Shown: positions 11,211 to 44,183, counted from the first letter of the stretch. The stretch: DNA of 64,000 nucleotides from a virus (IMGVR_UViG_3300034073_001700:32001-96000), one strand, 5' to 3'. Numbers and translations: made by a program. Notes: generated from the sequence alone by a model not told the origin.

Positions 11211-11238
11211 GTCCTGAGCATGACAACTAAAACTGCTC
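11211..11238 (+). ncRNA. Repeated pseudoknot motif, copy 1
   Basis: GTC-CTGAGCAT-GAC-AACTAAAAC-TGCTC. Confidence 0.7.
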
Positions 11239-11297
11239 AACTTGATTTTCTAACATTTTTGTGTTAGACTAAATACAACCCAAACGAAAGGATAACA

Positions 11298-11720
11298 ATG
11301 GCAAGAAATGGAAAAGCCATAAATGTCAAGATTGCTACAACCAAAGTAATCAAGGCACTTGAAACTAAGTTAGCCGAAATCAACAAGAATAAGGCTAATC
11401 AAAAAGTCAATGAGGAGAAACACTCAAAGGCTATGGAGAAGTATAATAAGGAAGTCGCTAAACTTGCGGTATCCGCTATCGCTAAGGCAACTGACTTGTC
11501 TGCTCACACTCGCTATAATGGTGAAATCGCAGTATCTTTCAACTTACCTAAAGATACTATTGAACTACCTGCTGAACCTGAAAAGGATTTTGATACCTAC
11601 CACGATTGGCAGTATCGTGAGATGATAGAGGAAATTGAGAACGCAATTCGTATTCTCAAGATGACAGATGAGGAAGTAGTTTCTACTTCTACTTACAACG
11701 CTATCGCAAGATACCTATAA
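11298..11720 (+). CDS. Hypothetical coiled-coil protein
   Basis: 140 aa; GAAAGGA SD; TTGATT/TAGACT promoter. Confidence 0.7.
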   Translation: MARNGKAINVKIATTKVIKALETKLAEINKNKANQKVNEEKHSKAMEKYNKEVAKLAVSAIAKATDLSAHTRYNGEIAVSFNLPKDTIELPAEPEKDFDTYHDWQYREMIEEIENAIRILKMTDEEVVSTSTYNAIARYL

Positions 11721-11802
11721 TTGGTTGGGGGAGGGTATTTGACTCCCCCTTCTAAAAATGCTAAAATTAAATAAATAACCCAATAAACAGAAAGGCAAGT
11801 AA

Positions 11803-11970
11803 ATGACACTCGGAGGATACACTTATCAAGTAGGAGATTTATTCACTACTTCTAAAACAGGTGTTACAGGAAGAATAAACTCTTTCACACCTATTCGTCA
11901 AAATGTAACTCGTGTAGGTCTTACACTTAGCAACGGCGCAAAGCGTTTTGCTATGGTAAAAACTTACTAA
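11803..11970 (+). CDS. Small SH3-like protein, paralog of 11026-11193
   Basis: Read by eye: MTLGGYTYQVGDLFTTSKTGVTGRINSFTP...; AGAAAGG SD. Confidence 0.65.
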   Translation: MTLGGYTYQVGDLFTTSKTGVTGRINSFTPIRQNVTRVGLTLSNGAKRFAMVKTY

Positions 11971-12123
11971 TACAATTGTGGCGGGTTTCGGGTGTGTAAT
12001 CGGAATTCCCCCCGCCACAACTAAAAACTAAATAGAATTGGGTGATCGTCTGCGTTCACGGCAAACTGCGACATAATTCATGGTTGTGTTGATCTTTTTG
12101 CGAAAGTCCCTTGACACTCCCTA

Positions 12124-12165
12124 ACGCCTGAGTATGGAGGAAATCCTTTAGCGTCTAAACTGCTC
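12124..12165 (+). ncRNA. Repeated pseudoknot motif, copy 2 (with inserted hairpin)
   Basis: ACGC-CTGAGTAT-[ggaggaaatccttta]-GCGT-CTAAAC-TGCTC. Confidence 0.6.
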
Positions 12166-12289
12166 CCCAAAAATCCCCTAGGGGGTGTGATAATAAACAC
12201 AGTCCAATATGTGAGATTATTTACGTACTCGACTTGCTTTCCCCCCTAAAAAATGTTATGATTAGATTATCTAAAGAAAGGATAACCCA

Positions 12290-12553
12290 ATGATAGCAAC
12301 CGCTATTGCTTTACAAGAAACCAGCAAAGAGGCAGTATATGATGAAACCTCAATGATGATGGCTTCTGCTTTATTTCATGGCAGACACGAGATGGATGAT
12401 GAACAATTCCAAAGAGCAATTTTTATGTATTCCGCTCACCTCTCTGCTGTTGCCACAACTCTCGCTACAAATGTCCTCTTGACAAAAGAGCAGGTAGATG
12501 AGATGATTAATACCATACAAGAAATGGAAACAATGGGAAAGGACATTGAATAA
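12290..12553 (+). CDS. Hypothetical early protein
   Basis: AGAAAGGA SD. Confidence 0.65.
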   Translation: MIATAIALQETSKEAVYDETSMMMASALFHGRHEMDDEQFQRAIFMYSAHLSAVATTLATNVLLTKEQVDEMINTIQEMETMGKDIE

Positions 12554-12999
12554 TGGAAATGACTGAAACATTAGTGCCTGAGCACTATAATCCAAATCAA
12601 TTGGTAACCTATAAGGTTATCAATAATGGTGAAACCACATATCCAACCAGCAAGGTTGTTGATATCGAATGGAAATTAGAAAGTGCACGGGCTGCAGATA
12701 GACAACTATCATCTCTAAGACTTAGTGTCAGCAACTTAGAAGACATGCTGCCCAACTGGTTAGAAAATGAACCAGATACTGGCGAGATTGTCTCTGACAT
12801 CTGTCAACTATTCGGATTCAATCCTACCAAGGATGTTGAGTTTGAGGCCACGGTAACAATTAGCGGAATCATAACTGTTCCACTTGCAGAACTAAATGAT
12901 TTTGATATTGATAGTGTTGATTTAAATATCGATGCAAATTCTTATTCACATGATGTCGATATTCAGAATGTAGAAGTCGACACAATCACAACGCTATAA
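12553..12999 (+). CDS. Hypothetical early protein
   Basis: 148 aa; TAATG overlap. Confidence 0.65.
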   Translation: MEMTETLVPEHYNPNQLVTYKVINNGETTYPTSKVVDIEWKLESARAADRQLSSLRLSVSNLEDMLPNWLENEPDTGEIVSDICQLFGFNPTKDVEFEATVTISGIITVPLAELNDFDIDSVDLNIDANSYSHDVDIQNVEVDTITTL

Positions 13000-13036
13000 T
13001 AAATTTGCGGGGTTCATGAAAGGCCCCGCAATGTAC

Positions 13037-13106
13037 GCAGCATCCCTCTTTCATCCTTTCTTATAGGGATCTGCAAGGGACCTGAGCACGTCCACGTAAA
13101 CTGCTC
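13037..13106 (+). ncRNA. Anti-SD-loop hairpin plus pseudoknot motif copy 3 (candidate sRNA)
   Basis: GCAG-c-ATCCCT[ctttcATCCTTTCTTat]AGGGAT-CTGC, then GGAC-CTGAGCAC-GTCC-ACGTAAAC-TGCTC. Confidence 0.6.
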
Positions 13107-13149
13107 CAATCAATCTCCTAGCAGGTCGATCTTGAAAAGTCAAATTTAT

Positions 13150-13206
13150 GGCGTGTCGGTGCATTAAGTAATAGGATTTGCTTTTGTCGCTGGTTTATGC
13201 TAAGAT
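13150..13206 (+). promoter_or_regulatory. WhiA-type box and PafBC-type promoter
   Basis: GGCGTGTC at 13150; TGTCGC-N10-TAAGAT at 13185-13206. Confidence 0.65.
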
Positions 13207-13233
13207 TAGTTTATCTACAGAAAGGAAATAAAA

Positions 13234-14244
13234 ATGGCTCACGAATTAGAAACGCAAAATGGCGTTGCTTCTTTCGCTTCTTTTAGAGAACCTGCTTGGC
13301 ATGGTCTTGGCACAGTTTTCACAGAAGAAAAAAATACAGCAGAAATGCTTGCTGCTGCTAATCTAAACAATTGGAATGTTAGATTGGTTGATGTTGAAAT
13401 TCCAAATACTCTTACATCAGATAAGAATTATTCTTATGTTGTAAGAACTAACCCTACCGATAAATCTCAGACCGATGTTCTCGGTGTTGTCGGTGAGCGT
13501 TATCATGTTCTACAAAATGAGGATTTATTCTCTTTTGGTGACACTATGCTTGACGGCGGTGGCCGTTGGGAAACTGCTGGCTCCATTCGTGGTGGTCGTG
13601 TAGTATTCGGCTCTCTTGCTCTTGAGCGTGAGACAATTCTTGACCCTAATGGTGTTGCGGATAAGGTAAAGACTTATCTTCTAATCAATACCTCTCATGA
13701 TGGGTCTATCGCAATTCAGGCTTCAATCACGCCCGTTCGTGTTGTATGCGCTAACACTCTCAATCTTGCGTTAGGTCGTAAGGGTAAAGGCCCTAAGCAA
13801 TCTTTCAAGATTAGACACACACAGACCGCTAACGGCAAAGTTCAAATTGCTCGTGAGGCTCTTGGTCTTGCTAATACTTACATGGACGAATTCGATAAAA
13901 TGGCTAAGGCTATGATTGAAAAAGAAATCACAGCACAGCAATTTAACGACATCGTTCTCGCTGCTTATCCTAAGCCTGACAGCGACAAGAAAATCGCTAT
14001 CACAAAATGGACTAACAAGATTGATGTTATCAATGACATCTACACAGGCCAATTTAATGGCATGATTGCTAACACCGCTTGGGGTGCGTTCAATGCGCTA
14101 ACCGAAAGATTGGATTGGCATCGTTCTGCTCGTGGTGGTAATACTGAGGCAATGCTCGCTGCTGCTTCTGGTTTTGACCCATCAATTACAGCAGAAAAAA
14201 ATCGTTTGCTAAAAGTTGTAAAAGATGTTTTAGCCGTAGCGTAA
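13234..14244 (+). CDS. DUF932 family protein (TIGR03299-like)
   Basis: MAHE..PAWHGLG, ETAGSIRGGR, SHDGS, PVRVVCANTL, RHT, TAWGAFNA. Confidence 0.9.
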   Translation: MAHELETQNGVASFASFREPAWHGLGTVFTEEKNTAEMLAAANLNNWNVRLVDVEIPNTLTSDKNYSYVVRTNPTDKSQTDVLGVVGERYHVLQNEDLFSFGDTMLDGGGRWETAGSIRGGRVVFGSLALERETILDPNGVADKVKTYLLINTSHDGSIAIQASITPVRVVCANTLNLALGRKGKGPKQSFKIRHTQTANGKVQIAREALGLANTYMDEFDKMAKAMIEKEITAQQFNDIVLAAYPKPDSDKKIAITKWTNKIDVINDIYTGQFNGMIANTAWGAFNALTERLDWHRSARGGNTEAMLAAASGFDPSITAEKNRLLKVVKDVLAVA

Positions 14245-14255
14245 TAAAATACGCA

Positions 14256-14282
14256 ACTCCTGAGCATGAGTATAAACTGCTC
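14256..14282 (+). ncRNA. Repeated pseudoknot motif, copy 4
   Basis: ACTC-CTGAGCAT-GAGT-ATAAAC-TGCTC followed by T-rich tract. Confidence 0.7.
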
Positions 14283-14633
14283 TATTTTTTATTGATCAAA
14301 AAATCGCCTAGGCAAACGGACAAATCGGACATAACATTTTTGATTTATTTTTATTACGTACGACTTGATTTTTTTGCTGGATTGTGGGATAATTAAATAT
14401 ACCCAATGAAAGGAAAATATGTTAGGCTATAAAATAACAGACATAGTAGATATGCAGATCTCTATTAATGAGGCTACTAAATATATACCCGCCGATGACC
14501 CTGAAACCAAGCGGGATCTATACAAAGCCTTTGACTTCTTACAAGGATTAATAGTAGAGGGCCACATTCAATAGTTGACATTCCCCTACATTTTTGCTAA
14601 AATTTAATTACGAACCCAATAGAAAGGCCCACG

Positions 14634-15005
14634 GTGCAAGAGCAGTTTATTGAAATGTCATTCGATGAGTGGCTTACTACATATAAACCTATACTTAATC
14701 ATATTGATAAGAATGCCTCATTCCAATCAGATGACGGAGGCATAATGTTTGAAACCTATGGTGATGAGGTAGAGTTTGTTAAGTCTCAGCCGCCTGCCAA
14801 TATATGGACATACGGTGACGGTGACATGGGTGTAGGCTATATTTGGTCTGGTTGGTCCTTTGTTAACAGGATTGGTTATTTTATTACTGAGGTACCGTGC
14901 CCTGAAAATACTATTATTCAAATACAACTTGACGAATTCCCCGAAGAATGCGATACTTGTGGGGTATTCATTTATAACGAGGAGGACGACCATGAGTGCG
15001 AGTAA
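14634..15005 (+). CDS. Hypothetical early protein
   Basis: FETYG...VNRIGYFITE family motif; AGAAAGG SD. Confidence 0.65.
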   Translation: MQEQFIEMSFDEWLTTYKPILNHIDKNASFQSDDGGIMFETYGDEVEFVKSQPPANIWTYGDGDMGVGYIWSGWSFVNRIGYFITEVPCPENTIIQIQLDEFPEECDTCGVFIYNEEDDHECE

Positions 15006-15210
15006 TTACTTGCTTGAATATATGAAGATACATCTTGTTAGTTTGGAGCAAGACCAAGCAGATGTAGCAGAACAAATGGAGGCACTTGACCCTAATAGCA
15101 AAGACTATCAAGAGTTAGACTTCGAGTATAACTGGCTTGCTGGTCAGATTATTGCTACCCGTCATTTTATAGAGATTGCAGAAGGAGCAGAGTATGAAGC
15201 CAAAGCCTAA
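14992..15210 (+). CDS. Hypothetical early protein
   Basis: Start moved to MSASNY after GGAGG SD. Confidence 0.55.
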   Translation: MSASNYLLEYMKIHLVSLEQDQADVAEQMEALDPNSKDYQELDFEYNWLAGQIIATRHFIEIAEGAEYEAKA

Positions 15211-15481
15211 TGAGTTACCAGATAATCTAATTAAGTCTGTCCAAGCAGGTGTATCAGGTCTTGATATTATCCATGGTGAACTTAAGAACTGGATGTATGA
15301 AACAGAACAAGAACTAAATCCATTGCTGCAGCAATCAGAAGAGATTGGCTCAGATGAAGACTACTCAGATACAGAAGATAGACTATGGCTGTCAGGGTAT
15401 ATGGAGGCACTTGCAGATGTATACAATTTGACATATCAACTCTCATTTGCTATTATGGACAAGGAAAAGGAGCAAGAATGA
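15194..15481 (+). CDS. Hypothetical early protein
   Basis: Start moved to MKPKP after AAGGAG SD. Confidence 0.55.
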   Translation: MKPKPNELPDNLIKSVQAGVSGLDIIHGELKNWMYETEQELNPLLQQSEEIGSDEDYSDTEDRLWLSGYMEALADVYNLTYQLSFAIMDKEKEQE

Positions 15482-15822
15482 TTAAAGTAGATAACCTACA
15501 ATTAGTTGGCGAGTTTAATGTAGATAGCGGACAGGCTATCATTGGTGACCCATGCTATTTAGATAGTTGGAAGCCTTGGAATCAGGATACTGGTGAGGAG
15601 TTTGACGAGTATAAGAACCGTCAAGGCGAATACGGATATCTTGGTGCTTGTGAGGCTACCATTAGCAAAGGTCATGGCACATTAGGCATGGGAAGCGCAG
15701 TTGCTATTAGCACAGGCTATGGTGACGGTGTCTATCCAGTCTATGCACAACTTAATGATGATAACAGGGTAGCCCTTGTTGTTATCGATTTCACTGGCGA
15801 GTATCTAACAGAGGATAATTAA
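15478..15822 (+). CDS. DUF4241-like protein
   Basis: VDSGQAIIGDPCY and STGYGDGVYPV motifs. Confidence 0.65.
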   Translation: MIKVDNLQLVGEFNVDSGQAIIGDPCYLDSWKPWNQDTGEEFDEYKNRQGEYGYLGACEATISKGHGTLGMGSAVAISTGYGDGVYPVYAQLNDDNRVALVVIDFTGEYLTEDN

Positions 15823-15823
15823 T

Positions 15824-16180: not shown

Positions 16181-16270
16181 AAGAGGGTTGGGTCCCCTCT
16201 TCAATGGGGCGTGAGTAACTTGCCACTTGCGCCCCTCTATCTTTTTTGATACAATCCAATAGGAGGAACT

Positions 16271-17586: not shown

Positions 17587-17612
17587 CTCCACTATCCTCC
17601 ACTTCACTCCAC
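17587..17612 (-). promoter_or_regulatory. MraZ-type operator (3 x GTGGAG, 10-bp period)
   Basis: Minus strand GTGGAG-tgaa-GTGGAG-gata-GTGGAG. Confidence 0.65.
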
Positions 17613-26576: not shown

Positions 26577-26650
26577 GGAGCAGTAGCCAAGTTGGTCAAG
26601 GCCCCGAACTCATAATTCGGTTATCGTAGGTTCGAGTCCTACCTGCTCTA
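26577..26650 (+). tRNA. tRNA-Met/Ile2 (CAT)
   Basis: Cloverleaf, anticodon loop CTCATAA, GGTTCGAGTCC. Confidence 0.9.
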
Positions 26651-26670
26651 CAGTGATACAATAGAATAAT

Positions 26671-26743
26671 TGATCTGTAGTTCAGTTGGTAGAACACTCG
26701 ACTGTTAATCGAGATGTCGCAGGATCGAGACCTGCCAGATCAG
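26671..26743 (+). tRNA. tRNA-Asn (GTT)
   Basis: Cloverleaf, loop CTGTTAA; atypical T-loop ATCGAGA. Confidence 0.85.
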
Positions 26744-26747
26744 CGAA

Positions 26748-26821
26748 GGTCCGTTAGTTCAGTTGGTTAGAACGCTACCCTGTCACGGTAGAGGTCGTGA
26801 GTTCAAGTCTCATACGGATCG
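26748..26821 (+). tRNA. tRNA-Asp (GTC)
   Basis: Cloverleaf, loop CTGTCAC, GTTCAAGTC. Confidence 0.9.
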
Positions 26822-26823
26822 CA

Positions 26824-26896
26824 GAGAAGGTAGGTGCTGTATGTGTGCCAGGGAAAAGGGAAACACATGTATAGCAAGTTGCAACCCTACCTTCTC
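26824..26896. ncRNA. Unidentified long hairpin RNA inside the tRNA cluster
   Basis: GAGAAGGTAGG/CCTACCTTCTC outer stem plus an inner stem. Confidence 0.5.
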
Positions 26897-26904
26897 CCTA
26901 TTTT

Positions 26905-26976
26905 GGCACTATCGTCTATCGGCTAGGACATCGCCCTTTCACGGCGGAAAGACGGGTTCGATTCCCGTTAGTGCTA
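26905..26976 (+). tRNA. tRNA-Glu (TTC)
   Basis: Cloverleaf, loop CTTTCAC, GGTTCGATTCC. Confidence 0.9.
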
Positions 26977-31154: not shown

Positions 31155-31226
31155 GCCTCCTTAACTCAGGGGTAGAGTACCCGCCTTGTAAGCGGGTTGT
31201 CGTAGGTTCAAATCCTACAGGAGGCT
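31155..31226 (+). tRNA. tRNA-Thr (TGT)
   Basis: Cloverleaf, loop CTTGTAA, GGTTCAAATCC. Confidence 0.9.
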
Positions 31227-33290: not shown

Positions 33291-33317
33291 GAGCAGTTTG
33301 TCGTCATACTCAGGACG
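33291..33317 (-). ncRNA. Repeated pseudoknot motif, copy 5
   Basis: Minus strand CGTC-CTGAGTAT-GACG-ACAAAC-TGCTC-TTTT after hsp20. Confidence 0.7.
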
Positions 33318-33344
33318 GAGTTAAGTATCGATACCTAACTCAGT

Positions 33345-33764
33345 TTATTTAATTTTGATTGCTTTTGGCTTTTTTTCTTCTGGGATGTTTCTTTCCACAA
33401 TAACGCTAAGAATACCGTCTGCCATTTCAGCACGATCAACCTCCATATACTCTCCTAGAGCAAAGGTGCGTGTGAACTTGCGAGTTGCGATACCCTTATG
33501 AAGTACATTTTCTGTACCCTCTTCGGTTTTCTCACCCTTGACGATTAATCTTCCATTATCCACAGAAACCTCGACTTCGTCTTTGCTGAATCCAGCAACT
33601 GCAAAGCGATAAGCATAAGTGTCCTCATCAAGTTTTACCACATCATATGGTGGATAGGATTGACGAGTTGCCTCACGATGGATATTTGAAAGACGGTCCA
33701 ACTCACGGTTGAAACCAATAAAAATTGGATCGTTAAACAGATCCAATGCAAATGAACTTACCAT
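33345..33764 (-). CDS. Small heat-shock protein Hsp20
   Basis: SYPPYD, AVAGF, HKGIATRKF, DGIL, IPEEKKP. Confidence 0.93.
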   Translation of the reverse strand: MVSSFALDLFNDPIFIGFNRELDRLSNIHREATRQSYPPYDVVKLDEDTYAYRFAVAGFSKDEVEVSVDNGRLIVKGEKTEEGTENVLHKGIATRKFTRTFALGEYMEVDRAEMADGILSVIVERNIPEEKKPKAIKIK

Positions 33765-34638: not shown

Positions 34639-36060
34639 CTATTTTATCACTTTAGTATTATAGGTTTCTTGCCATTTTAATATATCATTTTCATCATTTA
34701 ACAACGGCTGTCCTTTAATATTTAAACTAGTATTTAGCAATATTGGCACCCCTGTCATTGCATACCAATTAGAAAGAACATCATATAGCCCAGGGTGTTG
34801 ATCTTTATTTACTGTCTGTACCCTTGAAGTACCGTCTTGATGAACAACAGATGGAATTAGTTCTGGCTTTAAACATTTTGGAGTATATTGCATATATGGG
34901 GAGGCATAGTTCATATCAAACCATTTGCCTGCATGCTCTTCCATAATAACTGGAGCAAAAGGTCTAAACAATTCTCTTTTTTTAATTAAATTAACTTTAT
35001 CCTTAATATTTGGATCTCTTGGATCTGCAAGAATAGATCTATTTCCAAGCGCTCTTGGGCCATACTCTGCTCTTCCTGTTGCGACTGCAACAATTTTATC
35101 TCTAATTAAGCCAGTGATAATTTCTTTTACTGGATATTCCCCGCCCAAATCATATCCTAAGTATGGATGTTGCCAATTAACATGCTTGCCATATGCTGCT
35201 GTTGCTGCACCCAAAGATGAACCAGCGTCACCAGGATTAGGCATAATCCAAACATCATCAAACATTCTCCAAAGCATTGTGTTGGCTGCACAGTTAAGGG
35301 CACAACCACCCATAAAAACAAGGTTGCGTTTACCTGTAAGTTTCTGCGCCATGGCCATAAAATTAACTAATCTTTCTTCGTATACCCTTTGAACAGCAGC
35401 AGCAATATCAAACTGTTCTCTATGCCCTATATGTTCATTCCAGTCTATGATTCCTTTATGAAAATTATATTTTTGTGTATTTATATCTGGAAAATATTCT
35501 TTTACTTTAAGATAATATCTTGTCCAATCTCCATAGGCTGCCATCCCCATCATAATATATTCTTCTTGATTTGGCATAAGTCCTACCAACTGAGTGAAAG
35601 CAGAATAAAATAAGCCGAAACTAAATGGGTAATTCTTTTTGTATACTTGCTTTATTGAAGAGCCCTCTCCAACCCAAATAGTAGAAGTATTGTATTCTCC
35701 AATAGCATCGAGAACCACTATAACAGCATCATTAAATTTACTTGTATAGTAGCCAGCACAAGCGTGAGAATAGTGGTGGCTAAAGTATTTTACTGGTAAG
35801 TCCATAGGAATATTTGGTTTCCAATCTGCCGCTCCACCTCTTAACATTATTCTAGATCTTTTAAGCCAAGGCTTTTCATAATATGCTATGACATTAGGTG
35901 TCCCATAGTTTAATGCATCTAGTATAATTTCTTTATTATTGTACCAATCATTTTTTTCCTTACTATATCTTTCTGCATGACCAGCAAAAAGTATTTCTCC
36001 ATCTTTAATTAAAGATACAGATGCGTCGTGCGAAGTTTCATTTATTCCAAGAATTATCAT
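34639..36060 (-). CDS. Carbamoyltransferase (NodU/CmcH family)
   Basis: HHYSH, GGCALN, EYGPRALGNRS, RPFAP, LNTSLN. Confidence 0.93.
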   Translation of the reverse strand: MIILGINETSHDASVSLIKDGEILFAGHAERYSKEKNDWYNNKEIILDALNYGTPNVIAYYEKPWLKRSRIMLRGGAADWKPNIPMDLPVKYFSHHYSHACAGYYTSKFNDAVIVVLDAIGEYNTSTIWVGEGSSIKQVYKKNYPFSFGLFYSAFTQLVGLMPNQEEYIMMGMAAYGDWTRYYLKVKEYFPDINTQKYNFHKGIIDWNEHIGHREQFDIAAAVQRVYEERLVNFMAMAQKLTGKRNLVFMGGCALNCAANTMLWRMFDDVWIMPNPGDAGSSLGAATAAYGKHVNWQHPYLGYDLGGEYPVKEIITGLIRDKIVAVATGRAEYGPRALGNRSILADPRDPNIKDKVNLIKKRELFRPFAPVIMEEHAGKWFDMNYASPYMQYTPKCLKPELIPSVVHQDGTSRVQTVNKDQHPGLYDVLSNWYAMTGVPILLNTSLNIKGQPLLNDENDILKWQETYNTKVIK

Positions 36061-37740: not shown

Positions 37741-37752
37741 TACGACACCCTT

Positions 37753-38037
37753 CTATATCCAGTACTTAAGTATAGCAGTTATGGCTAAAATTGTCCAGAG
37801 TATATTAAACCAAATTAGTGTGGGTATTGTTTTTACAGTAGAAGACCATATTAGCATTAGGCTTGAAGCGAGGGCAAAAATATAAAGCCACCACCATTGC
37901 TTATTAAATAATAGTCCTGGGATAATTATTACTGCCTTGGTCACAAAAGCAAAAAATTCAACAATATTAGGTTTATTCCAGTAGGATTTATTGCCCATGG
38001 TTTTTAATGCATAAAGCCAATCTAATTTAAAATTCAT
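37753..38037 (-). CDS. Membrane protein
   Basis: Three hydrophobic helices. Confidence 0.6.
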   Translation of the reverse strand: MNFKLDWLYALKTMGNKSYWNKPNIVEFFAFVTKAVIIIPGLLFNKQWWWLYIFALASSLMLIWSSTVKTIPTLIWFNILWTILAITAILKYWI

Positions 38038-39577
38038 TTAATTGCTCCAAAAATTTTCTATGCCCAATACATTCAAATTTTTTATAGTCTTGAACACTTG
38101 TAAAATAATCATAGTTATCACAAGCATCTTTATATTTTTGAGAATAGTTTATATATTTTTCAGCAAGACTCTTATTTATTTTATTAATTCCTAAACCAAC
38201 AACGAGCCAACTATCAAATGACCAATATGTTCCACTATCATGTTTGTTTGGAAATCTCTCCTGCCACAAATCTATCTTATTTTTTAAACTGTCTGGCGCA
38301 TTGTTATAAGAAAATTTTGACCAAAACTCTGTATCTTTTCTGTCTCCCATATAATGAAAATAAACAAACTCTGCTATATCATTATTCATTTTGACTACAT
38401 CTTTATTAAATTCTTTTCTTAAATTATCTGTGTTGCCAAACAACCACTCTGGATTAGAGAATAATCTTTTTAACATATTTATGCTCGCCCAAATAGAAGT
38501 AGCCTCTAATGGCTCTATAAAGTTTGATGCAAGACCTATTGCAACACAGTTATTAACCCAAGGAGTCTCATAACATCCAGCACTAAATTTAAATCCACCC
38601 TTATCTTTACGTGGATATGATGGCTCATACCCTAAATATTCTTCTATCTCTTGTACTGCTTCAGACTCTGATATCATAGATGAATCATATACATACCCGC
38701 ATCCAAATCTAGACTGTAAAGGAATCTTCCACATCCAGCCATACTTCATTGCTATTGCCTCAGTATATGGGGGAATTTCTTCTGTCATCTCAATAAAAAA
38801 TGGTAGTGCTGAATCTACTGGAAGGAAATCACTATAACTCTTCCACTCTGATTTAAATAGTTTGCCTATGATTAACCTATGAAATCCACTGCAATCAAAT
38901 ACAAAATCACATGGCTCCATACTTCCATCTTCAAATGAAACACTTTGTATATTATCATTGTAGTCTAGTGATATATTATTAATTGTTTTTTCAATTATCT
39001 TTATACCACGATCTATACCTATTGACTTTAGCCTATCGGCAAATTTAGAGGCGTTAAAATGTATGGAGTGGGACGCTAAATTATCATAATCTGAATTTAA
39101 ATTTTTAGTATAGGAATTTTTATCAACGAAAGGAACCTTGTTATCTTCTGAAATTTTTTCTATAAAGTCAACTGGTCCAAACTTATTGTTTTTTATAATG
39201 CTAGAAATTATAAGAGGATGGGTTAAAAGTCCAGCAGACCCCGCATCGAATCCTGCTGATGTAGATTGCTTTACCGAAAAGGCATGATAATAAAAATCAC
39301 CATCGTTGTTCCAGTTAGTAAACTTAATTCCATTTTTAATAGTGGTATCACAGTGCTGTACTAGATCATGCAATGGTATATCTAAACTATTAAGAAAGTC
39401 TACTATTTGTGGGGTAGATCCTTCTCCTGCACCTAAAATGCCAATATCCTTAGACTCAACCAATGTAACATTAAGATCTGGATATATCTTGTTTATATAT
39501 AGTGCGGTCAACCAACCAGCGCTACCGCCTCCAACTACCAAAATATTTTTGATGCTAATCTTCTTTACCACCCTCAC
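38027..39577 (-). CDS. Tryptophan halogenase-family flavoprotein (start uncertain)
   Basis: GGGSAGW, GAGEGS, GWMWKIPL, FIEPLEATSI. Confidence 0.88.
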   Translation of the reverse strand: MRVVKKISIKNILVVGGGSAGWLTALYINKIYPDLNVTLVESKDIGILGAGEGSTPQIVDFLNSLDIPLHDLVQHCDTTIKNGIKFTNWNNDGDFYYHAFSVKQSTSAGFDAGSAGLLTHPLIISSIIKNNKFGPVDFIEKISEDNKVPFVDKNSYTKNLNSDYDNLASHSIHFNASKFADRLKSIGIDRGIKIIEKTINNISLDYNDNIQSVSFEDGSMEPCDFVFDCSGFHRLIIGKLFKSEWKSYSDFLPVDSALPFFIEMTEEIPPYTEAIAMKYGWMWKIPLQSRFGCGYVYDSSMISESEAVQEIEEYLGYEPSYPRKDKGGFKFSAGCYETPWVNNCVAIGLASNFIEPLEATSIWASINMLKRLFSNPEWLFGNTDNLRKEFNKDVVKMNNDIAEFVYFHYMGDRKDTEFWSKFSYNNAPDSLKNKIDLWQERFPNKHDSGTYWSFDSWLVVGLGINKINKSLAEKYINYSQKYKDACDNYDYFTSVQDYKKFECIGHRKFLEQLNEF

Positions 39578-39797: not shown

Positions 39798-40357
39798 TAT
39801 TTTTTTATTTCTACGTTCGGCATAATATCAATAAGTAGATGTACCCTATCTATATTGCTATTATTTTTAACAAGATGATGTCTAGAATTATTTACTTCCC
39901 AACATTCTCCAGCCTTCATGTTAACTTCTTCATCTCCAACTCCAAAAAGAACTCCGTCTGAAGTTATAATTGGTATGTGATTTCTTCTAGAAAACATTAG
40001 GTAATCTCCAGAGTCATGATGTATGGGTATATCCTCGTTTGCTTTCAACTTAATTAACAAAACCATTCCCCTTACTCCGTCATGGATTCTTTCTAAATCT
40101 TTAACGATTGGCTCTACCAAATCTAACAGAGTTTGATCTTGAGACTTAGTTTCGACAATAAATTCTTCTCCGTCTTTCCAATAAAGGTTAGCCCTATTAA
40201 TATAATAGGTAAAGGTTTGCTTATGTATCTTGGAGTTATCTTGTCTGGCAGTATCTATAAGCCATTCGTCAGAAAAATTTTCTACATACTTTCTGATTTT
40301 ATCAACATTATATTCAGCAAGTTTTTTAAAATTAAAATTTTCTACTGTCTTTCTCAT
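39797..40357 (-). CDS. Aspartyl/asparaginyl beta-hydroxylase-domain protein
   Basis: HHD, RNHIPIIT, WEVNN...H.V.N...RVHLLID. Confidence 0.8.
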   Translation of the reverse strand: MRKTVENFNFKKLAEYNVDKIRKYVENFSDEWLIDTARQDNSKIHKQTFTYYINRANLYWKDGEEFIVETKSQDQTLLDLVEPIVKDLERIHDGVRGMVLLIKLKANEDIPIHHDSGDYLMFSRRNHIPIITSDGVLFGVGDEEVNMKAGECWEVNNSRHHLVKNNSNIDRVHLLIDIMPNVEIKK

Positions 40358-40938
40358 AGTACCTCCAATGACTTTTCAAACTCCAGGGGATATCCAAAAT
40401 TATTAAAATCTTCAATGTATATATCCCTGGTCATTTGTATGGTTTGCTCCGTATAGTCTTCTTTATATGATTGTACCATATAATTACCTATGTTGTATTT
40501 ACCCAAAGTCCATCCAAAATCACGCTCTAGTTCAACCAAATTTTCAAAATTATATAACTTAGTAACCTGAAGCATTTTTTGTTCAATAATATAAAAAGAC
40601 TGAGACAGGTGTAGTAGTGGAGTTATCTGAGAAATTTTATTTTCCTGGATATTGGTAAGGTATTCTAGAAAAGATATATCAACCTGATTTGCTTTTTTAT
40701 ATTGACCAAAACAACTATAGGTTCTGGTGTATGGATTTCTAACAACAGAAAAAGAAAATGTTTTATCATTAATGTCATTAACTTCTTTTAAATAAAAGTA
40801 CGGGTCATGGTGTCTTGGCCAACCCCTTTTCCAATTATCTAAATTATTTTCATTTAATATTTTAGATATAGACGATCCTGCAGTTTTTGGAATATGAACA
40901 AACAAAACTGAATCATATTCCTCATTTGCTATAATCAT
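40354..40938 (-). CDS. Sulfotransferase family 2 protein
   Basis: FVHIPKTAGSS, VRNPYTR, DF..FGY. Confidence 0.8.
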   Translation of the reverse strand: MIIANEEYDSVLFVHIPKTAGSSISKILNENNLDNWKRGWPRHHDPYFYLKEVNDINDKTFSFSVVRNPYTRTYSCFGQYKKANQVDISFLEYLTNIQENKISQITPLLHLSQSFYIIEQKMLQVTKLYNFENLVELERDFGWTLGKYNIGNYMVQSYKEDYTEQTIQMTRDIYIEDFNNFGYPLEFEKSLEVL

Positions 40939-40953
40939 TAATGTACCAATCTA

Positions 40954-41235
40954 TTAGTCTAATGTTAAATTTTGCCAAGCATTTGCCCAGTCCTGTGCAG
41001 TTTTGTGGTCGTTAAATTCTTTAGAAATAGAACCAGCATCCAAATAAATACCGCCCCACACTCCATATTCTTTGCTTGATACACCAACAGCAAAACATGT
41101 TTTTGCTACTGGACAATTTAAACAAAGTAGATCTATTGCTGGCCTAAGAGCAGACTCTTCTTCGTACTTATCAAAAAATAAATTAGTATCATAATCTAAA
41201 CAAGATGCCTGATCTTTCCATTTAAGTTTGTGCAT
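40954..41235 (-). CDS. whiB: WhiB-family transcriptional regulator
   Basis: W...ASC...FF...C..CPV...C...YGVWGG. Confidence 0.9.
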   Translation of the reverse strand: MHKLKWKDQASCLDYDTNLFFDKYEEESALRPAIDLLCLNCPVAKTCFAVGVSSKEYGVWGGIYLDAGSISKEFNDHKTAQDWANAWQNLTLD

Positions 41236-41446
41236 GTCCTATTACAAACCTTTCTGGAATATCCCAGCCATTTCTATTGGGGACAAATCGTCTCGACATA
41301 TACCAATTATTTTTAAAATATACGCCATACTTAGAAGTTTTTGCTTTATCAGATCTGTATCGATTTACTACAGACCATCCATCCCAATACAAATCTTTAT
41401 TATTGGAAACAATAGACTCCATTTGTTCTAAATTATCTATAATCAT
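41222..41446 (-). CDS. Hypothetical protein
   Basis: WDGW motif; AGGAG SD. Confidence 0.6.
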   Translation of the reverse strand: MIIDNLEQMESIVSNNKDLYWDGWSVVNRYRSDKAKTSKYGVYFKNNWYMSRRFVPNRNGWDIPERFVIGHAQT

Positions 41447-41453
41447 TTTTCTC

Positions 41454-41804
41454 CTAGTATTTAAAAATTCCAAATTCAACATTATTAAGTTGTGCTTCTG
41501 ATACTAACTTTGAATTTCCTTCTTTTGGATTTGCCAGATAAACAAAGTAATTGATATCTGACATGTTTTCTAAAATCCAAGAAGGAGCAACCTTATACAT
41601 TTTTATTTTTTTGCCACGAGACCTCATTCCCTTTTCAGAAACATTTGTAAATTCCATAACCATAGAGTTTACTTTGGCAGGACCAGCGCTATAAATATAA
41701 AAATAATTATCGTCTACTGGCATACCCGAAAGGGCTACGCCCATGGCACGAAGGAAAACCTGGTAGTCATCAAAACTACTAGTACCCTGTACTCCCACTA
41801 TCAT
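41454..41804 (-). CDS. SLOG-like (YspA-related) protein
   Basis: VQGTSSFDDY...SAGP N-terminal pattern. Confidence 0.45.
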   Translation of the reverse strand: MIVGVQGTSSFDDYQVFLRAMGVALSGMPVDDNYFYIYSAGPAKVNSMVMEFTNVSEKGMRSRGKKIKMYKVAPSWILENMSDINYFVYLANPKEGNSKLVSEAQLNNVEFGIFKY

Positions 41805-42207
41805 TGAAGTTGTTCCCTTCTTGTAGACGATCCATTATGAAGATCATTTTATCTAATTGTACCTTATTCATAGCCATTGTGTCAACTGTTCTGGTTGTTT
41901 CTTTATCAACATCACCGTGAACCATATCAGCAGTATAAAAAACATTGTCTTTAACCCAATACGCCTGATTGTCCACAATAATCACACGTATCTTTGTTCG
42001 CTCTTCGTGCTTACGAGACTGAGTTTCTTTTTTAGTCTCTGTAGTTTGATTTTGACTATTAATTGCTTGCTTTATAATATGTTTGCTACTTTGAGTTTTA
42101 ACAAATTGTTTTGTAGAAAACTCATTAAAAATATTAAATTTATTTTGTAGTATATTAATAAAATAGATTAATGCAAATGCAAAGGCAAACCCAATATAAT
42201 ATTTCAT
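41779..42207 (-). CDS. Membrane-anchored hypothetical protein
   Basis: N-terminal TM; AYWVKDNVFYTA. Confidence 0.6.
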   Translation of the reverse strand: MKYYIGFAFAFALIYFINILQNKFNIFNEFSTKQFVKTQSSKHIIKQAINSQNQTTETKKETQSRKHEERTKIRVIIVDNQAYWVKDNVFYTADMVHGDVDKETTRTVDTMAMNKVQLDKMIFIMDRLQEGNNFNDSGSTGY

Positions 42208-42231
42208 ATTATCACCAATACAATTATACTA

Positions 42232-42543
42232 CTATCTTAAAACATGTCTTTTGATTTCTTTTAATGTGTGCTTTAAGTCCTCGTCTAAGGTCTCTACAAT
42301 TTCTTTGTTAAAAGCCTTTTCTGTAAGCCTTACAATTGGATTCTCATCCATTACATTCATTCTGAGTATACCAATTTCCCAAAGTTTCATGACATGTTCG
42401 TTGAACATATTGTCAACCTCCCTGGCCAATAGGGGGCTGACATCCTTTAGTTTATTGGTAAAACTATAAAGCATCTCCCCAGTTTCGGAATCTATCCCTG
42501 CTGGCTCCACTGCTCCGCTTAAAATTAAATCTTCTATATCCAT
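42232..42543 (-). CDS. Hypothetical protein (paralog of 42545-42769)
   Basis: LILSGAVE..GID.ETGE..Y..T.KL. Confidence 0.65.
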   Translation of the reverse strand: MDIEDLILSGAVEPAGIDSETGEMLYSFTNKLKDVSPLLAREVDNMFNEHVMKLWEIGILRMNVMDENPIVRLTEKAFNKEIVETLDEDLKHTLKEIKRHVLR

Positions 42544-42544
42544 A

Positions 42545-42769
42545 TTAATCTCTTATCCTCCATGTCATTGATTTTGGACCACGCTTATCTAAAATAAAAA
42601 GGTGGTGCTTAAATTGATCCTCTAACTCTTGATAAAGTTCTGGGGCTAATTCTTTAAGTTTATCTGTAATATTATAGTAGGTTTCTCCAGTTTCAAGGTC
42701 TATGTCTGAAATTTCTAGACCACCTTGTAAAACTAAATGCTCTACTAAAGCATTAGTTTTTGGATTCAT
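42545..42769 (-). CDS. Hypothetical protein (paralog of 42232-42543)
   Basis: LVLQGGLE...ID.ETGE.YY..T.KL. Confidence 0.65.
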   Translation of the reverse strand: MNPKTNALVEHLVLQGGLEISDIDLETGETYYNITDKLKELAPELYQELEDQFKHHLFILDKRGPKSMTWRIRD

Positions 42770-43177
42770 CTACTTTCCTGACTTCTGTCTTTGTGCTGCC
42801 AATAAAGAAAAGTCTTTTACCTTAGTTTCTCCCAAGTAGGCCCAGGCATAGCCGTCTTCAATCATATGATCGTTTACAGAAACCGTATCTCCATCCACAT
42901 ACAGCCAACCAAGTATACGTCCATACTTTTCTGAAGAGTCTGGTTTTTCTGTTTTTATTATTACATCTTTGGCTTCTTTAAGTTTTGACTTTAGATATTC
43001 TTTAGACTCAATACCCAGGGTTTTTTCAAACTTATCTTTTGTTCTAGACTCTGGAGTATCTATTCCAGCCAAACGAACTCGTTGAGAAAATGATACATTA
43101 AATCCAAGGTCTATCTCTACATCTATTGTGTCACCATCTACGATGTTAGTAATTTTTTTAACCCTATAGGTATACAT
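42770..43177 (-). CDS. Thermonuclease (SNase) family
   Basis: VDGDTI, RLAGIDTPE, KYGRILG. Confidence 0.9.
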   Translation of the reverse strand: MYTYRVKKITNIVDGDTIDVEIDLGFNVSFSQRVRLAGIDTPESRTKDKFEKTLGIESKEYLKSKLKEAKDVIIKTEKPDSSEKYGRILGWLYVDGDTVSVNDHMIEDGYAWAYLGETKVKDFSLLAAQRQKSGK

Positions 43178-43434
43178 TAGTTTTCACTTCCTACAAGTTT
43201 GTTTTCAATAAGCCTATCTCTTTCGTCAACGATATCTATGGCAAACTTCATCATCTTGTCATACCCCACGGCATTATCCATGATCTTATTATAATGATGG
43301 CCACAAAATAGTAACGACATATTCTCCTGACCAGTAACCTTTACGTATGCCTGAGCACCACATCTGTCACATCTATCGGTAGCATCGAGCAAATAAACTT
43401 TTTCTTCTGGCTTAGACTTTAGCATACTAAACAT
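43177..43434 (-). CDS. Actinobacterial-type Zn-binding protein
   Basis: DRCDRCGAQAY...LLFCGHH. Confidence 0.7.
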   Translation of the reverse strand: MFSMLKSKPEEKVYLLDATDRCDRCGAQAYVKVTGQENMSLLFCGHHYNKIMDNAVGYDKMMKFAIDIVDERDRLIENKLVGSEN

Positions 43435-43435
43435 A

Positions 43436-43621
43436 TTATACCCTTCTATTGTCAGTTGTATAGAATCCAGAGCCATTGAATGTGACTCCTACATTAGAGT
43501 ATACACGAACCAGGGGGTTTTGGCAAGTTTCACATAAATACCCTGGATCATTTTCTGACATGCCTCTAACCTTTGTATATCTTACGGCACATGCCATACA
43601 GTCATATTCGTATGCTGCCAT
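43436..43621 (-). CDS. FmdB-family zinc-ribbon protein
   Basis: YEYDC..C...C..C...FNGSGFYTTD. Confidence 0.8.
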   Translation of the reverse strand: MAAYEYDCMACAVRYTKVRGMSENDPGYLCETCQNPLVRVYSNVGVTFNGSGFYTTDNRRV

Positions 43622-43897
43622 TATTTCTTCTTTGTCTTGGCCTTTACATACCAAACAGGAAGTTTAAGTTCATCCCCAGACCATTCGTATCCCAGAGCCT
43701 TTACCACAAACTTAATAATCTTTATTCTCATTTTGCTTTTCTCTCCCACTTTGTTCCTTCTTGTATAATACCATCTTTGTCACGATCTACCGCATTAGGA
43801 TTAAATCCTTGAGAAATTTTTTTGTTTAGCCTATCTTCTTTAATTGTAATAATAGAAATAATTAATGCCAAACCAATATAAACAAGTAATGCTTCCA

Positions 43898-44116
43898 TTA
43901 CCCAACCTTCTTTCCAAATCTAGCCCACACTCTTTCATGAAGGTAGAAGAAAGTCATTTCTAGTGTTAGGTATGAAAGTCCATAAAGACCTACATATTCC
44001 CACTCTGCTTCTCCAGTGTAATACTTTAGAACGAAATAAATTATTCCAGAAACAAAAGTAAAATGCACAAATGGCCAACTAATTGTTTTTAATAAAGATC
44101 GTTTTGATGATTCCAT
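43898..44116 (-). CDS. DUF2061-like membrane protein
   Basis: ESSKRSLLKTISW...YLHERVW. Confidence 0.75.
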   Translation of the reverse strand: MESSKRSLLKTISWPFVHFTFVSGIIYFVLKYYTGEAEWEYVGLYGLSYLTLEMTFFYLHERVWARFGKKVG

Positions 44117-44157
44117 TTTATTCTCCTTTGTGAATCTATACAATTATAGCATTTATT

Positions 44158-44183
44158 GGGCAGTTTTAGTCATGCCCAGGACT
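44158..44183 (-). ncRNA. Repeated pseudoknot motif, copy 6 (compensatory change in P2)
   Basis: Minus strand AGTC-CTGGGCAT-GACT-AAAAC-TGCCC. Confidence 0.7.

Follow-up and report, generated by a model that had tools for sequence, protein, structure and literature searches.

A widespread RNA pseudoknot at phage gene ends without an entry in the RNA catalogues searched

In the window (the whole stretch of viral DNA analyzed, 64,000 nucleotides), six copies of a compact motif were found, and the motif was confirmed, on sequence comparison, as a widespread phage gene-end RNA pseudoknot without an entry in the RNA catalogues searched. As shown by covariation, it is an H-type pseudoknot of 26–29 nt that lies within the sense transcript. 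From its context, the knot could serve as an intrinsic cap that sets the 3′ end of the upstream mRNA and protects it, a reading to which a probability of about 0.5 is given. The six copies and a small hairpin next to the first one are as follows:

11194..11208, + strand: small hairpin UUCUC-AAUAC-GAGAA, 3′ of the stop codon and 5′ of copy 1, read from the sequence
11210..11238, + strand: copy 1, P1 TGTC/GACA, loop CUGAGCAU, linker ACUA, AAAC, UGCUC
12124..12165, + strand: copy 2, P1 ACGC/GCGU, loop CUGAGUA, a 15-nt inserted hairpin at L2, then CU, AAAC, UGCUC
13078..13106, + strand: copy 3, P1 GGAC/GUCC, loop CUGAGCAC, linker ACGU, AAAC, UGCUC
14256..14282, + strand: copy 4, P1 ACUC/GAGU, the canonical 27-nt form
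33291..33317, − strand: copy 5, P1 CGUC/GACG, P2 GAGUA/UGCUC including one U-G pair
44158..44183, − strand: copy 6, P1 AGUC/GACU, P2 GGGCA/UGCCC, a covarying P2 variant

Direct reading of the window agreed with the preliminary description at all six positions, and the P1 pairs are those listed there. For copy 1 its GTC/GAC was confirmed, and the four-base-pair reading TGTC/GACA is also possible. All copies are on the sense strand and 3′ of a stop codon, at stop-to-P1 distances of 16, 153, 78, 11, 27, and 5 nt for copies 1 to 6. The stop codon of copy 1 is located at 11191–11193, copy 4 follows a 336-aa phrog_1221 gene and has a U-rich run on its 3′ side, and copy 6 follows a 276-aa gene (44189–45019). 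Copy 5 lies downstream of an Hsp20-like gene (33345–33764) and a 24-nt hairpin (33318–33341). Relatives carry AGTC/GACT at the site orthologous to copy 1 (L103, L124, and L028), a compensatory change with respect to TGTC/GACA, and UUCCU...AGGAA at the position equivalent to the small hairpin. An identical copy 3 is present in L028. The pairing of P1 across the 15-nt insert of copy 2 is supported by L103, which keeps the insert with a covarying P1 (ACAC/GUGU instead of ACGC/GCGU).

The sequence AAACTGCYC occurs nine times in the window, whereas 0.84 occurrences are expected and none of 100 shuffles reached nine. The pattern CCTGRGYA-N(4-30)-AAACTGCYC has six matches in the 120,142-base genome, all of them within the window, and a backwards control pattern has none in the same genome. 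With a covariance model derived from 108 instances, the five compact copies were recovered at E ≤ 0.0025, namely copy 4 (39.7 bits, E 1.3e-08), copy 5 (34.2 bits, E 3.6e-07), copy 1 (32.7 bits, E 8.7e-07), copy 6 (27.9 bits, E 1.6e-05), and copy 3 (19.6 bits, E 0.0025), as well as the insert-bearing copy 2 as a partial match (E 0.12). The other 10 of the 16 model matches listed (E 0.035 to 9.6) are without the CCTGRGYA...AAACTGCYC pair and were rejected as copies. The six copies are the only ones in the 120-kb viral genome. Judged by their context, they may close six transcription or processing units in the window. As a side observation, the phage appears to use host-type promoters.

In 5′-to-3′ order, the fold consists of P1 (S1, usually 4 bp, with a nearly invariant closing C-G pair), L1 with CU, the 5′ strand GRGYA of S2 (P2), L2 with a single N that can house an inserted hairpin, P1′, L3 with NN and AAAC, and the 3′ strand UGCYC of S2, which is usually followed by A and then by a G-poor stretch (A at position +1 in 87 of 125 instances, G rare at +2 to +5). 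The pyrimidine placed after GRGYA in the preliminary description is not always present (T 63, A 47, C 12, G 3 in 125 instances). In all of the 108 aligned instances, the unpaired C7, U8, A21–A23, and C24 are invariant and the loop has 8 nt of the form C-U-G/A-R-G/A-Y-A-N.

At least three contiguous P1 pairs were present in 125 of 143 compact pattern matches from a search that itself imposed no pairing. At the P2 position left free on both sides of the pattern, 109 A-U, 15 G-C, one G-U, and no A-C combinations were counted (125 unique instances). Using a relaxed descriptor, in which only CU, AAAC, and the geometry were fixed and the P2 sequence was free, 129 matches were obtained in 1.13 Mb compared to one in shuffled sequence, and the compensatory P2 variants GGACA/UGUCC, AAGCA/UGCUU, GAGUA/UACUC, and UAGCA/UGCUA were recovered. 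In an alignment that was selected for pairing, two-sided changes were found at eight of nine pairs (P1 4/4, P2 4/5) and the covariation score amounted to 0.509, compared to 0.163 in shuffles (0 of 500 reach the score) and at most 0.124 for slid partners. The covarying H-type pseudoknot proposed at the outset is therefore fully supported, as the loop pairs with 3′ sequence and both P1 and P2 covary.

By analogy to luteovirus knots, base triples are probable, with the C and U of L1 in the groove of S2 and the AAA(C) of L3 in that of S1, by which the two weak helices would become one compact, mechanically stable block. A point against the cap is the low stability of the single helices (−3.4 to −7.5 kcal/mol for P2 alone, −3.4 to −6.6 kcal/mol for the nested MFE), so that the assumed tertiary contacts would be needed for the knot to withstand PNPase, RNase II, or RNase R.

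In agreement with the preliminary description, which could not assign the motif to a family, a search of Rfam 15 gave no match for it. The whole window contains only five tRNAs at gathering thresholds, and in the region 11000–14500 there was no match on any motif copy at E ≤ 10. A SAM-II match (11722–11774, 22.6 bits) and a mir-2944 match were rejected as chance; neither overlaps a copy. The motif was found well beyond this phage, in at least 120 IMG/VR stretches, in cultured phages of several phyla, and in some bacterial contigs. The carriers are phages or contigs of Actinomycetota, Bacillota, Alphaproteobacteria, Cyanobacteria, Bacteroidota, Patescibacteria, and Chloroflexota, and this multi-phylum host range speaks for a block inherent to the RNA, or for an enzyme common to all hosts, rather than for a lineage-specific partner.

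The position relative to genes was analyzed in two samples of 137 and 148 instances. In the first one, 112 instances share the strand of their nearest upstream ORF and 14 are opposite to it, and six are located inside a same-strand ORF. It starts at most 20 nt past a stop codon in 64/137 and 92/148 instances, respectively. A stop-to-P1 distance of 0–4 nt does not occur in the first sample and exactly 5 nt occurs 14 times, while the second sample has no distances of up to 3 nt, five of 4 nt, 25 of 5 nt, and 19 of 6 nt. Across both samples, no distance of 3 nt or less occurs and the peak is at 5–6 nt, presumably about the edge of the terminating ribosome. The footprint argument relies on a helicase site that reportedly lies near +11, counted from the first P-site nucleotide. 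The small hairpin said to precede the motif often was found in a minority only, since the upstream 35 nt have z < −2 in 25% of 134 instances. On the 3′ side, the first 12 nt contain 11% G and the 35-nt flank is unstructured (mean z −0.3, MFE ≤ −6 in 19%).

A same-strand tRNA begins 4–13 nt 3′ of the knot in 14 of 137 instances, and in only one does a tRNA end at most 60 nt 5′ of the knot. In Amigo, an annotated Arthrobacter phage, the SSB stop codon precedes the knot, and 3 nt separate the knot from a tRNA-Gly. A knot followed by CUGANGA was detected in 53 IMG/VR stretches (54 matches). A simple test for hammerheads is passed by 18 of the matches and a strict type III descriptor by 16, the cleavage site of the type III hammerhead being located 5–14 nt 3′ of the knot. 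Rfam type III hammerheads abut the knot in L032, L298, L276, L273, and L267 (E 7e-07 to 0.09, with none reaching the gathering score). The reverse order, with the knot 3′ of the hammerhead, gave 104 control matches of which none is hammerhead-like. Hammerheads without a knot are present in the same contigs (L273, 1681–1735; L276, 5236–5292). Furthermore, a Shine-Dalgarno (SD) sequence with a start codon follows within 60 nt in 16/137 instances and a U run (at least six U in the first 9 nt) in 15/137, leaving 122/137 with no U run. In five bacterial contigs, the last part of a mini-ORF overlaps with the knot, which is followed by an ordinary intrinsic terminator. For 86 of the 137 instances, none of the scanned features (tRNA, hammerhead, U run, terminator, SD plus ORF within 60 nt) is found close downstream.

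Three functions had been proposed in the preliminary description, a 3′ exonuclease block, a non-canonical terminator, and a processing or protein-binding element. The exonuclease block fits the context best, because the knot lies 3′ of stop codons and directly 5′ of tRNA 5′ ends and hammerhead cleavage sites, and never behind a hammerhead in the control; a terminator suits a minority only. Placed just outside the footprint of the terminating ribosome, the knot could remain folded. The transcript would then be cut a few nucleotides 3′ of it, possibly by RNase P at a tRNA, by a hammerhead ribozyme, by an endonuclease in the G-poor tail, or through termination at a U run. 3′-to-5′ exonucleases would trim back and halt at the knot, by which the coding region and the stop codon would stay intact. 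Against such a cap speak the 86 instances with no recognized end-forming feature nearby downstream, as well as the five bacterial contigs, in which the knot would not be the 3′ terminus because a terminator lies beyond it. More tentatively, the knot may be the first described class of bacterial or phage exoribonuclease-resistant RNA, a sequence-defined and host-independent 27-nt stop for 3′-to-5′ exonucleases, placed with nucleotide precision at the edge of the terminating ribosome. If this is true, phages of many phyla pair the knot with RNase P and hammerhead cuts, resulting in stable single-gene messages.

The position 5′ of tRNAs and ribozymes is equally compatible with a folding insulator, which is another point against the cap. 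The knot would in this case set a following tRNA, ribozyme, or ribosome binding site apart from the upstream message that is being translated, stopping post-termination or read-through ribosomes and preventing upstream mispairing with the co-transcriptionally folding downstream RNA. The one-sided order (1/137 for upstream tRNAs, 0/104 for the reverse hammerhead), the 16 instances with an SD sequence and start codon, and the minimum stop-codon distance, which puts the knot at the mouth of the terminating ribosome, argue for this role, and coremin knots arrest ribosomes during scanning and promote frameshifting in vitro, according to PMC10520033 and PMC10321173. An insulator is nevertheless considered unlikely, as ribosomes are already halted by the stop codon, a simple spacer would not need strict sequence conservation, knot-free hammerheads occur in the same contigs, and the 86 instances have nothing of the scanned kind to insulate. 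A slightly smaller chance is given to the knot being recognized by a conserved protein or nuclease, in which case it would be a processing signal instead of a passive block. Candidates are an endonuclease cutting the G-poor tail, accessory domains of PNPase or RNase R, ribosomal protein S1, or a ProQ- or Hfq-like binder. The invariant unpaired nucleotides and the A at +1 followed by few G would suit such a partner, but the hosts of the carrier phages differ widely in their RNA decay machinery, and base triples inside the fold also explain the invariant loop bases.

A non-canonical terminator or pause signal, with P2 formation replacing the terminator hairpin, is improbable. The U run directly 3′ in 15/137 instances, in window copies 4 and 5, and in the Lactobacillus prophage Lj771 is in line with it. 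The stable hairpin plus U tract of an intrinsic (Rho-independent) terminator is not present as a rule, with 122/137 instances having no U run; elements that require read-through (tRNAs, hammerheads, and ribosome binding sites) are located 4–30 nt downstream, and the five bacterial contigs have a separate canonical terminator 3′ of the knot. Very improbable is a bacterial counterpart of the Xrn1-resistant RNAs (coremin-like), blocking a 5′-to-3′ exonuclease such as RNase J and protecting downstream RNA. The topology is similar, and a third loop of the G-NN-AAAC type is common to the coremin motif GUCCGAAGACGUUAAACUAC, as given in PMC10520033 and PMC10321173. However, a cut by RNase P or a hammerhead would sever the knot from the downstream RNA, and hp2, which is required for Xrn1 resistance, is absent here. 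In addition, phages of E. coli and Yersinia, hosts that are not known to have a 5′-to-3′ exoribonuclease, carry look-alike copies; the Mangalitsa copy has a G-G mismatch in P1. The least probable reading is a very small self-cleaving ribozyme. It would account for the invariant unpaired nucleotides, and the motif is found in phage contigs that also carry hammerhead and twister ribozymes, but the knot often adjoins another cleavage site and would be redundant there, and we know of no natural self-cleaving class as small as this knot.

The knot resembles the coremin and luteovirus knots and is not a member of either. The BWYV structure contains loop-stem triples. Luteovirus knots (BWYV, PLRV) are likewise of H-type and below 30 nt, with a short pyrimidine-containing L1, an A-rich L3 beside a short S1, and loops forming triples with the stems, as described in PMC10321173. 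They differ in lying over a slippery site, whereas the phage knot follows a stop codon, has an S2 of 5 bp, belongs to another sequence family, and is carried by DNA phages. A slippery heptamer X XXY YYZ was found 5–9 nt upstream in 10 of 260 cases, which is not enriched compared to 3–15 in neighboring intervals. For this reason, and because a stop codon typically occupies these positions, a −1 frameshift stimulator was rejected.

Coremin (xrRNA-C) and xrRNA-WCC share with the phage knot a short C-G-closed hairpin, about 6 nt with a UAAAC-like sequence, and subsequent loop-pairing bases, and both are proposed mechanical blocks, coremin also halting scanning ribosomes. By definition, hairpin 1 of coremin has 3 bp and carries either a tetraloop (YGAD) or a hexaloop (YGNNAD) (PMC6546385; PMC10520033), and an hp2 directly downstream is required for Xrn1 resistance of coremin and xrRNA-WCC (PMC10321173). 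In contrast, the phage knot has its 8-nt loop CUGRGYAN in 108/108 instances and no conserved hairpin in the 35 nt downstream. From the conserved 10-nt coremin spacer GUUAAACUAC, only the AAAC-U core is common to the phage knot; the five 3′-terminal bases of its segment NN-AAAC-UGCYC are Watson-Crick paired to the loop, giving an S2 of five such pairs. While coremin blocks a 5′-to-3′ enzyme, the context of the phage knot points to a protection of upstream RNA.

The preQ1-I aptamer (RF00522) has a similar size, H-type topology, and an A-rich 3′ tail. The phage knot differs from it, with no RF00522 match even at E ≤ 10, an S2 predicted to be stable without ligand, and many copies per genome, located at gene ends and not in 5′ leaders. 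Stem-loops that stabilize 3′ ends comprise terminator hairpins, REP elements, and the RNase III-processed hairpins of T7. The job proposed for the knot is the same, halting 3′-to-5′ exonucleases at the end of the coding region, but these are simple, sequence-variable hairpins and not a sequence-conserved pseudoknot found across phyla. Hammerheads in prophages are described as intergenic “punctuation” by which long transcripts are thought to be divided into mRNAs of gene length (Perreault et al., 2011; PMC3088659). An identity with hammerheads was rejected, since the motif is without the CUGANGA/GAAA three-stem core and the hammerheads are separate downstream neighbors. Both elements sit between phage genes and are joined in at least 16 contigs, where the knot would be the stabilizer of the new 3′ end and not the cutter.

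The six pseudoknots of the preliminary description are all present in the window at the positions named there. Each is of the H-type (26-29 nt in the compact form) and consists of a first helix (P1) enclosing the loop CU (L1), the 5′ strand GRGYA of the second helix (P2) and a short L2, followed by a third loop (L3) ending in AAAC and the 3′ strand UGCYC.

Copies of the pseudoknot in the window
11210..11238 (+), copy 1: UGUC CUGAGCAU GACA ACUA AAAC UGCUC
12124..12165 (+), copy 2: ACGC CUGAGUA (15-nt insert at L2) GCGU CU AAAC UGCUC
13078..13106 (+), copy 3: GGAC CUGAGCAC GUCC ACGU AAAC UGCUC
14256..14282 (+), copy 4: ACUC CUGAGCAU GAGU AU AAAC UGCUC
33291..33317 (minus strand), copy 5: CGUC CUGAGUAU GACG AC AAAC UGCUC
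44158..44183 (minus strand), copy 6: AGUC CUGGGCAU GACU AA AAAC UGCCC

The reported sense-strand placement behind stop codons was verified, as all six copies lie on the local coding strand, 5 to 153 nt past a stop. The 3′ box AAACTGCYC occurs nine times in the window, compared to 0.84 expected from shuffling. The two-box pattern has six matches in the whole genome of origin, a 120,142-base virus record of IMG/VR that has direct terminal repeats, all of them within the window, and a backwards control pattern has none in the same genome. With a covariance model, the five compact copies were recovered at E ≤ 0.0025 and copy 2 at E 0.12; the other 10 of the 16 listed matches are without the two boxes. 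Further AAACTGCTC or CCTGRGYA sites in the window (4916, 5997, 14640, 18501, 25114 and 3499) were judged not to be copies. The hairpin described as inserted in copy 2 comprises 15 nt at the one-nucleotide L2 junction and is also kept in a relative, L103, where P1 across the insert changes from ACGC/GCGU to ACAC/GUGU. U-rich runs directly follow copies 4 and 5, and the sequence directly 3′ of copy 1 (11242-11270) reads as promoter-like (TTGATT-17-TAGACT, scan score below the threshold). The genes upstream of the knots share no common class in PHROGs (Hsp20, phrog_1221, unknowns).

The pseudoknot is a real, widespread and uncatalogued phage RNA element, forming a large family rather than a local repeat. 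A scan of IMG/VR with the two-box pattern, from which P1 is absent, revealed at least 120 stretches; among the matches listed, 125 of 143 compact ones have a P1 of at least three contiguous pairs, and 99 of the 125 unique instances listed share an identical geometry with 6 nt between the start of the P1 3′ strand and AAAC. The one P2 position left free on both sides is A-U in 109 of these 125 instances, G-C in 15, G-U in 1 and A-C in 0. Extrapolated roughly from how often an unrelated heptamer adjoins the knot by chance, its copies in IMG/VR may number on the order of ten thousand. Chance matches dominate the same scan in bacterial and archaeal genomes, where a full 4-bp P1 is found in 22 of 123 matches (about 2 expected); the other 101 were taken as chance. 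Labels of the contigs with a 4-bp P1 include Saccharimonadales, Lachnospiraceae, Aminicenantes, Eggerthellaceae, Alistipes, Flavobacteriaceae, Chloroflexi and Calothrix, among others. BLAST with three natural 32-nt instances as queries detected the motif in cultured phages too. Of seven inspected, the knot is intact in Lentibacter phage vB_LenP_ICBM2, Arthrobacter phage Amigo and Lactobacillus prophage Lj771. One mismatch in P1 or P2 is present in Synechococcus phage S-EIVl, Bacillus phage Page, Staphylococcus phage StB12 and Escherichia phage Mangalitsa, the copies of which may be decayed.

The covariation claimed for both helices was confirmed in a gapless alignment of 108 distinct instances, with both-side changes in 4 of 4 P1 pairs and 4 of 5 P2 pairs. 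The covariation score is 0.509, compared to 0.163 after shuffling (0 of 500 reach 0.509) and at most 0.124 with slid partners. Because this alignment was selected for pairing, the percentage of paired positions is circular, which does not apply to the pair-type counts, the P1 three-pair count and the count at the free P2 position. A second descriptor, in which only CU, AAAC and the geometry are fixed and P2 has to pair in any sequence, was run on all retrieved loci and resulted in 129 matches in 1.13 Mb versus 1 in shuffled sequence. It includes the compensatory P2 variants GGACA/UGUCC, AAGCA/UGCUU, GAGUA/UACUC, GGGUA/UACCC and UAGCA/UGCUA. The unpaired CU and AAAC are invariant as claimed (C7 and U8 in L1, A21-A23 and C24; 108 of 108), likewise A13 and U25, and the closing pair C6-G15 is found in 106 of the aligned instances. 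The single helices are weak (P2 -3.4 to -7.5 kcal/mol), and nested folding chooses either one. Since each helix alone is weak and the loop bases are invariant, tertiary contacts formed by these bases are very likely; by analogy with luteovirus knots, L1 would occupy the deep groove of P2, and the minor groove of P1 would take up the A-rich L3.

The position at gene ends was analyzed for 137 instances among the listed matches of the first locus set and for a second sample of 148. In the first sample, the closest ORF 5′ of the knot shares its strand in 112 cases and has the other orientation in 14, six knots are located inside a same-strand ORF, and 64 knots start at most 20 nt past the stop codon (median distance 15 nt). 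The spacing between the stop codon and the first P1 base shows a sharp lower edge: none of the 137 knots starts at 0-4 nt, 14 at 5 and 8 at 6 nt, and the second sample has no knot up to 3 nt, with 5 at 4, 25 at 5 and 19 at 6 nt. For the 22 bacterial instances the minimum is likewise 5 nt. The helicase site of the ribosomal mRNA tunnel is located near +11 from the first P-site nucleotide and a stop codon in the A site spans +4 to +6, so that a structure 5 nt later begins at +12, just outside the terminating ribosome. In our reading of these general ribosome figures, the edge would reflect selection against unfolding of the knot during decoding of the last codon. There is no enrichment of slippery heptamers at this spacing (10 of 260), so the knot is not a frameshift signal. 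In-frame use of the UGA of the motif was rejected, the stop-to-motif distances having no frame preference.

A conserved mini-ORF (MKR[YF]xVPRxxHCxxGC...), equipped with a promoter and an SD of its own, overlaps the knot with its 3′ end in five bacterial MAG contigs. Its stop codon is the UGA of the motif itself; in the GGG variant the frame continues to a stop directly past the knot. These loci had no match in NCBIfam or Rfam.

L142:1220-1306 (+), mini-ORF, intrinsic terminator 3′ of the knot
L145:7183-7299 (-), mini-ORF
L189:109-195 (+), mini-ORF, intrinsic terminator 3′ of the knot
L224:2316-2453 (-), mini-ORF, GGG variant
L239:135-221 (-), mini-ORF, intrinsic terminator 3′ of the knot

The two flanks of the knot differ. 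The 35 nt upstream are structured (mean z -1.14; z < -2 in 25%), whereas the 35 nt downstream are unstructured (mean z -0.3); an A directly follows the knot in 87 of 125 instances, and few have a G at +2 to +5. A tRNA-like 3′ end was dropped as a candidate, ACC following the knot in 18 of 125 instances, about the single-position expectation. A same-strand tRNA gene begins 4-13 nt past the knot in 14 of 137 instances (about 0.2 by chance in a rough calculation), and a tRNA end upstream of the knot was found in one of 137, 53 nt away. The annotated order in phage Amigo is SSB stop codon, knot, 3 nt, tRNA-Gly, tRNA-Val. The window carries four clustered tRNA genes at 26577-26976 (+) and one more at 31155-31226 (+), none of them preceded by a knot; relatives and other phages place it directly 5′ of tRNAs.

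Hammerhead cores were recognized by eye behind 3 of the 137 knots. A dedicated scan for a knot followed by CUGANGA within 4-34 nt resulted in 54 matches in 53 stretches, of which 18 passed a simple test (stem II plus GAAA) and 16 a strict descriptor for type III; these 16 place cleavage 5, 6, 8, 13 or 14 nt past the knot. In the E-value mode of Rfam, type III hammerheads adjoin the knot in L032, L298, L276, L273 and L267 with 27.7-45.8 bits; at the gathering thresholds (gathering score 48.5), all hammerheads neighbouring knots were missed. The order is polar: in the reverse-order control (CUGANGA 20-50 nt 5′ of the knot), none of 104 matches is hammerhead-like and all are coding sequence. Type III hammerheads without a knot in front occur in the knot-bearing contigs L273 (1681-1735, -) and L276 (5236-5292, -). 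Other knot-bearing viral contigs contain a glutamine riboswitch above the gathering score (L260:1544-1596, -) and a sub-threshold type-P1 twister (L256:2027-2086, +).

This context points, with a probability of roughly 0.5, to a function in defining the 3′ end of the upstream message and protecting it. After RNase P cleavage at the tRNA or self-cleavage of the hammerhead, the upstream RNA would end 3-14 nt past the knot; exonucleases would trim back as far as the knot and halt there, and the stop codon would remain usable. The data establish the fold, the strand, the gene-end position, the spacing rule and the polarity with respect to cleavage sites; tertiary stabilisation, exonuclease resistance and 3′ ends located at the knot are inferred. 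Such a 3′-end cap best accounts for the predicted cut position, for a site immediately beyond the terminating ribosome and for a tail that is poor in G and unstructured. Hammerheads flanking prophage genes were proposed by Perreault et al. (2011, PMC3088659) to cut long transcripts into gene-length mRNAs, to which the knot would be the complementary end-stabiliser.

Among the alternatives, an insulator of folding or of ribosomes is unlikely, and is the one hardest to tell from the cap by context alone. A recognition site for a protein or nuclease, which the invariant loop bases would fit, is quite unlikely. As a terminator or pause signal the knot is improbable. Of 137 knots, 15 are followed by a U run, 16 by an SD plus ORF within 60 nt and 5 by a terminator hairpin, and 86 fit none of the crude downstream classes, tRNA and hammerhead included. 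That the knot is itself a self-cleaving ribozyme is scarcely credible, as a separate cleavage site often adjoins it.

Very improbable, too, is a block of 5′-to-3′ exonucleases, which brings to mind the RNA-virus pseudoknot coremin (xrRNA-C). As described in PMC6546385, PMC10520033 and PMC10321173, coremin has in common with the phage knot a short hairpin closed by C-G, a third loop of roughly 6 nt containing AAAC and the loop-to-3′ pairing. However, its defining YGAD or YGNNAD loop and its obligatory downstream hairpin (hp2), as given there, are absent from the phage knot, and the context implies protection of the opposite polarity, so the phage knot is not counted as a member. The luteovirus frameshifting knots have the same topology, but the phage knot is without a slippery site. 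Like both, it would be a small mechanical block.

The Rfam search proposed in the preliminary description yielded no family of Rfam 15, neither for the whole window nor for the motif region. No description of the motif was found in the literature on phage structured RNAs, pseudoknots, coremin and exonuclease-resistant RNAs, and searches with its sequence strings returned unrelated primer matches only. The supplementary tables of PMC10690425, a catalogue of 10,006 candidate viral RNAs, may list it under a number; the passages on the subject in the preprint 10.64898/2026.10.21.760802 do not mention it. As a 27-nt module absent from Rfam, with sequence and fold conserved across phages of many phyla, the knot would rank among the commonest uncatalogued structured RNAs of phage genomes, and phage annotation can use it in practice to mark where genes end and on which strand they lie. 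If it caps 3′ ends, this would explain message stability after polycistronic transcripts are cut at tRNAs and ribozymes and supply a role for the hammerheads by which phage operons are 'punctuated'; synthetic mRNAs in bacteria could also be stabilised with this very small, portable element.

Besides the knots, the window encodes a 1092-aa DNA polymerase, a DnaB-like helicase and a UvsX-like recombinase, and contains:

11722-11750, 11981-12018 and 13006-13032 (+), G+C-rich hairpins right behind three early genes
33345-33764 (-), auxiliary gene, Hsp20-like protein
34639-36060 (-), auxiliary gene, Nol-like carbamoyltransferase
38027-39577 (-), auxiliary gene, tryptophan-halogenase-like protein

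The three hairpins look like ordinary terminator or stabiliser hairpins employed beside the knot. Nine metatranscriptome runs contain 5-8% of the words of window 10800-14700, and four of these were aligned to the window. The data are assembled contigs, mostly 90-95% identical to the window and therefore derived from relatives. Some span copies 1 and 2 and others end between the stop codon and copy 1; as assembled contigs are incapable of showing RNA ends, nothing was concluded from them on 3′ ends. The highest contig depth is at 11586-11716, just 5′ of the G+C-rich hairpin at 11722-11750. RNA contigs from two studies fuse 11721 to 12091, a junction matching a relative such as L103 without the 55-aa gene at 11803-11970 and with the knots kept on both sides.
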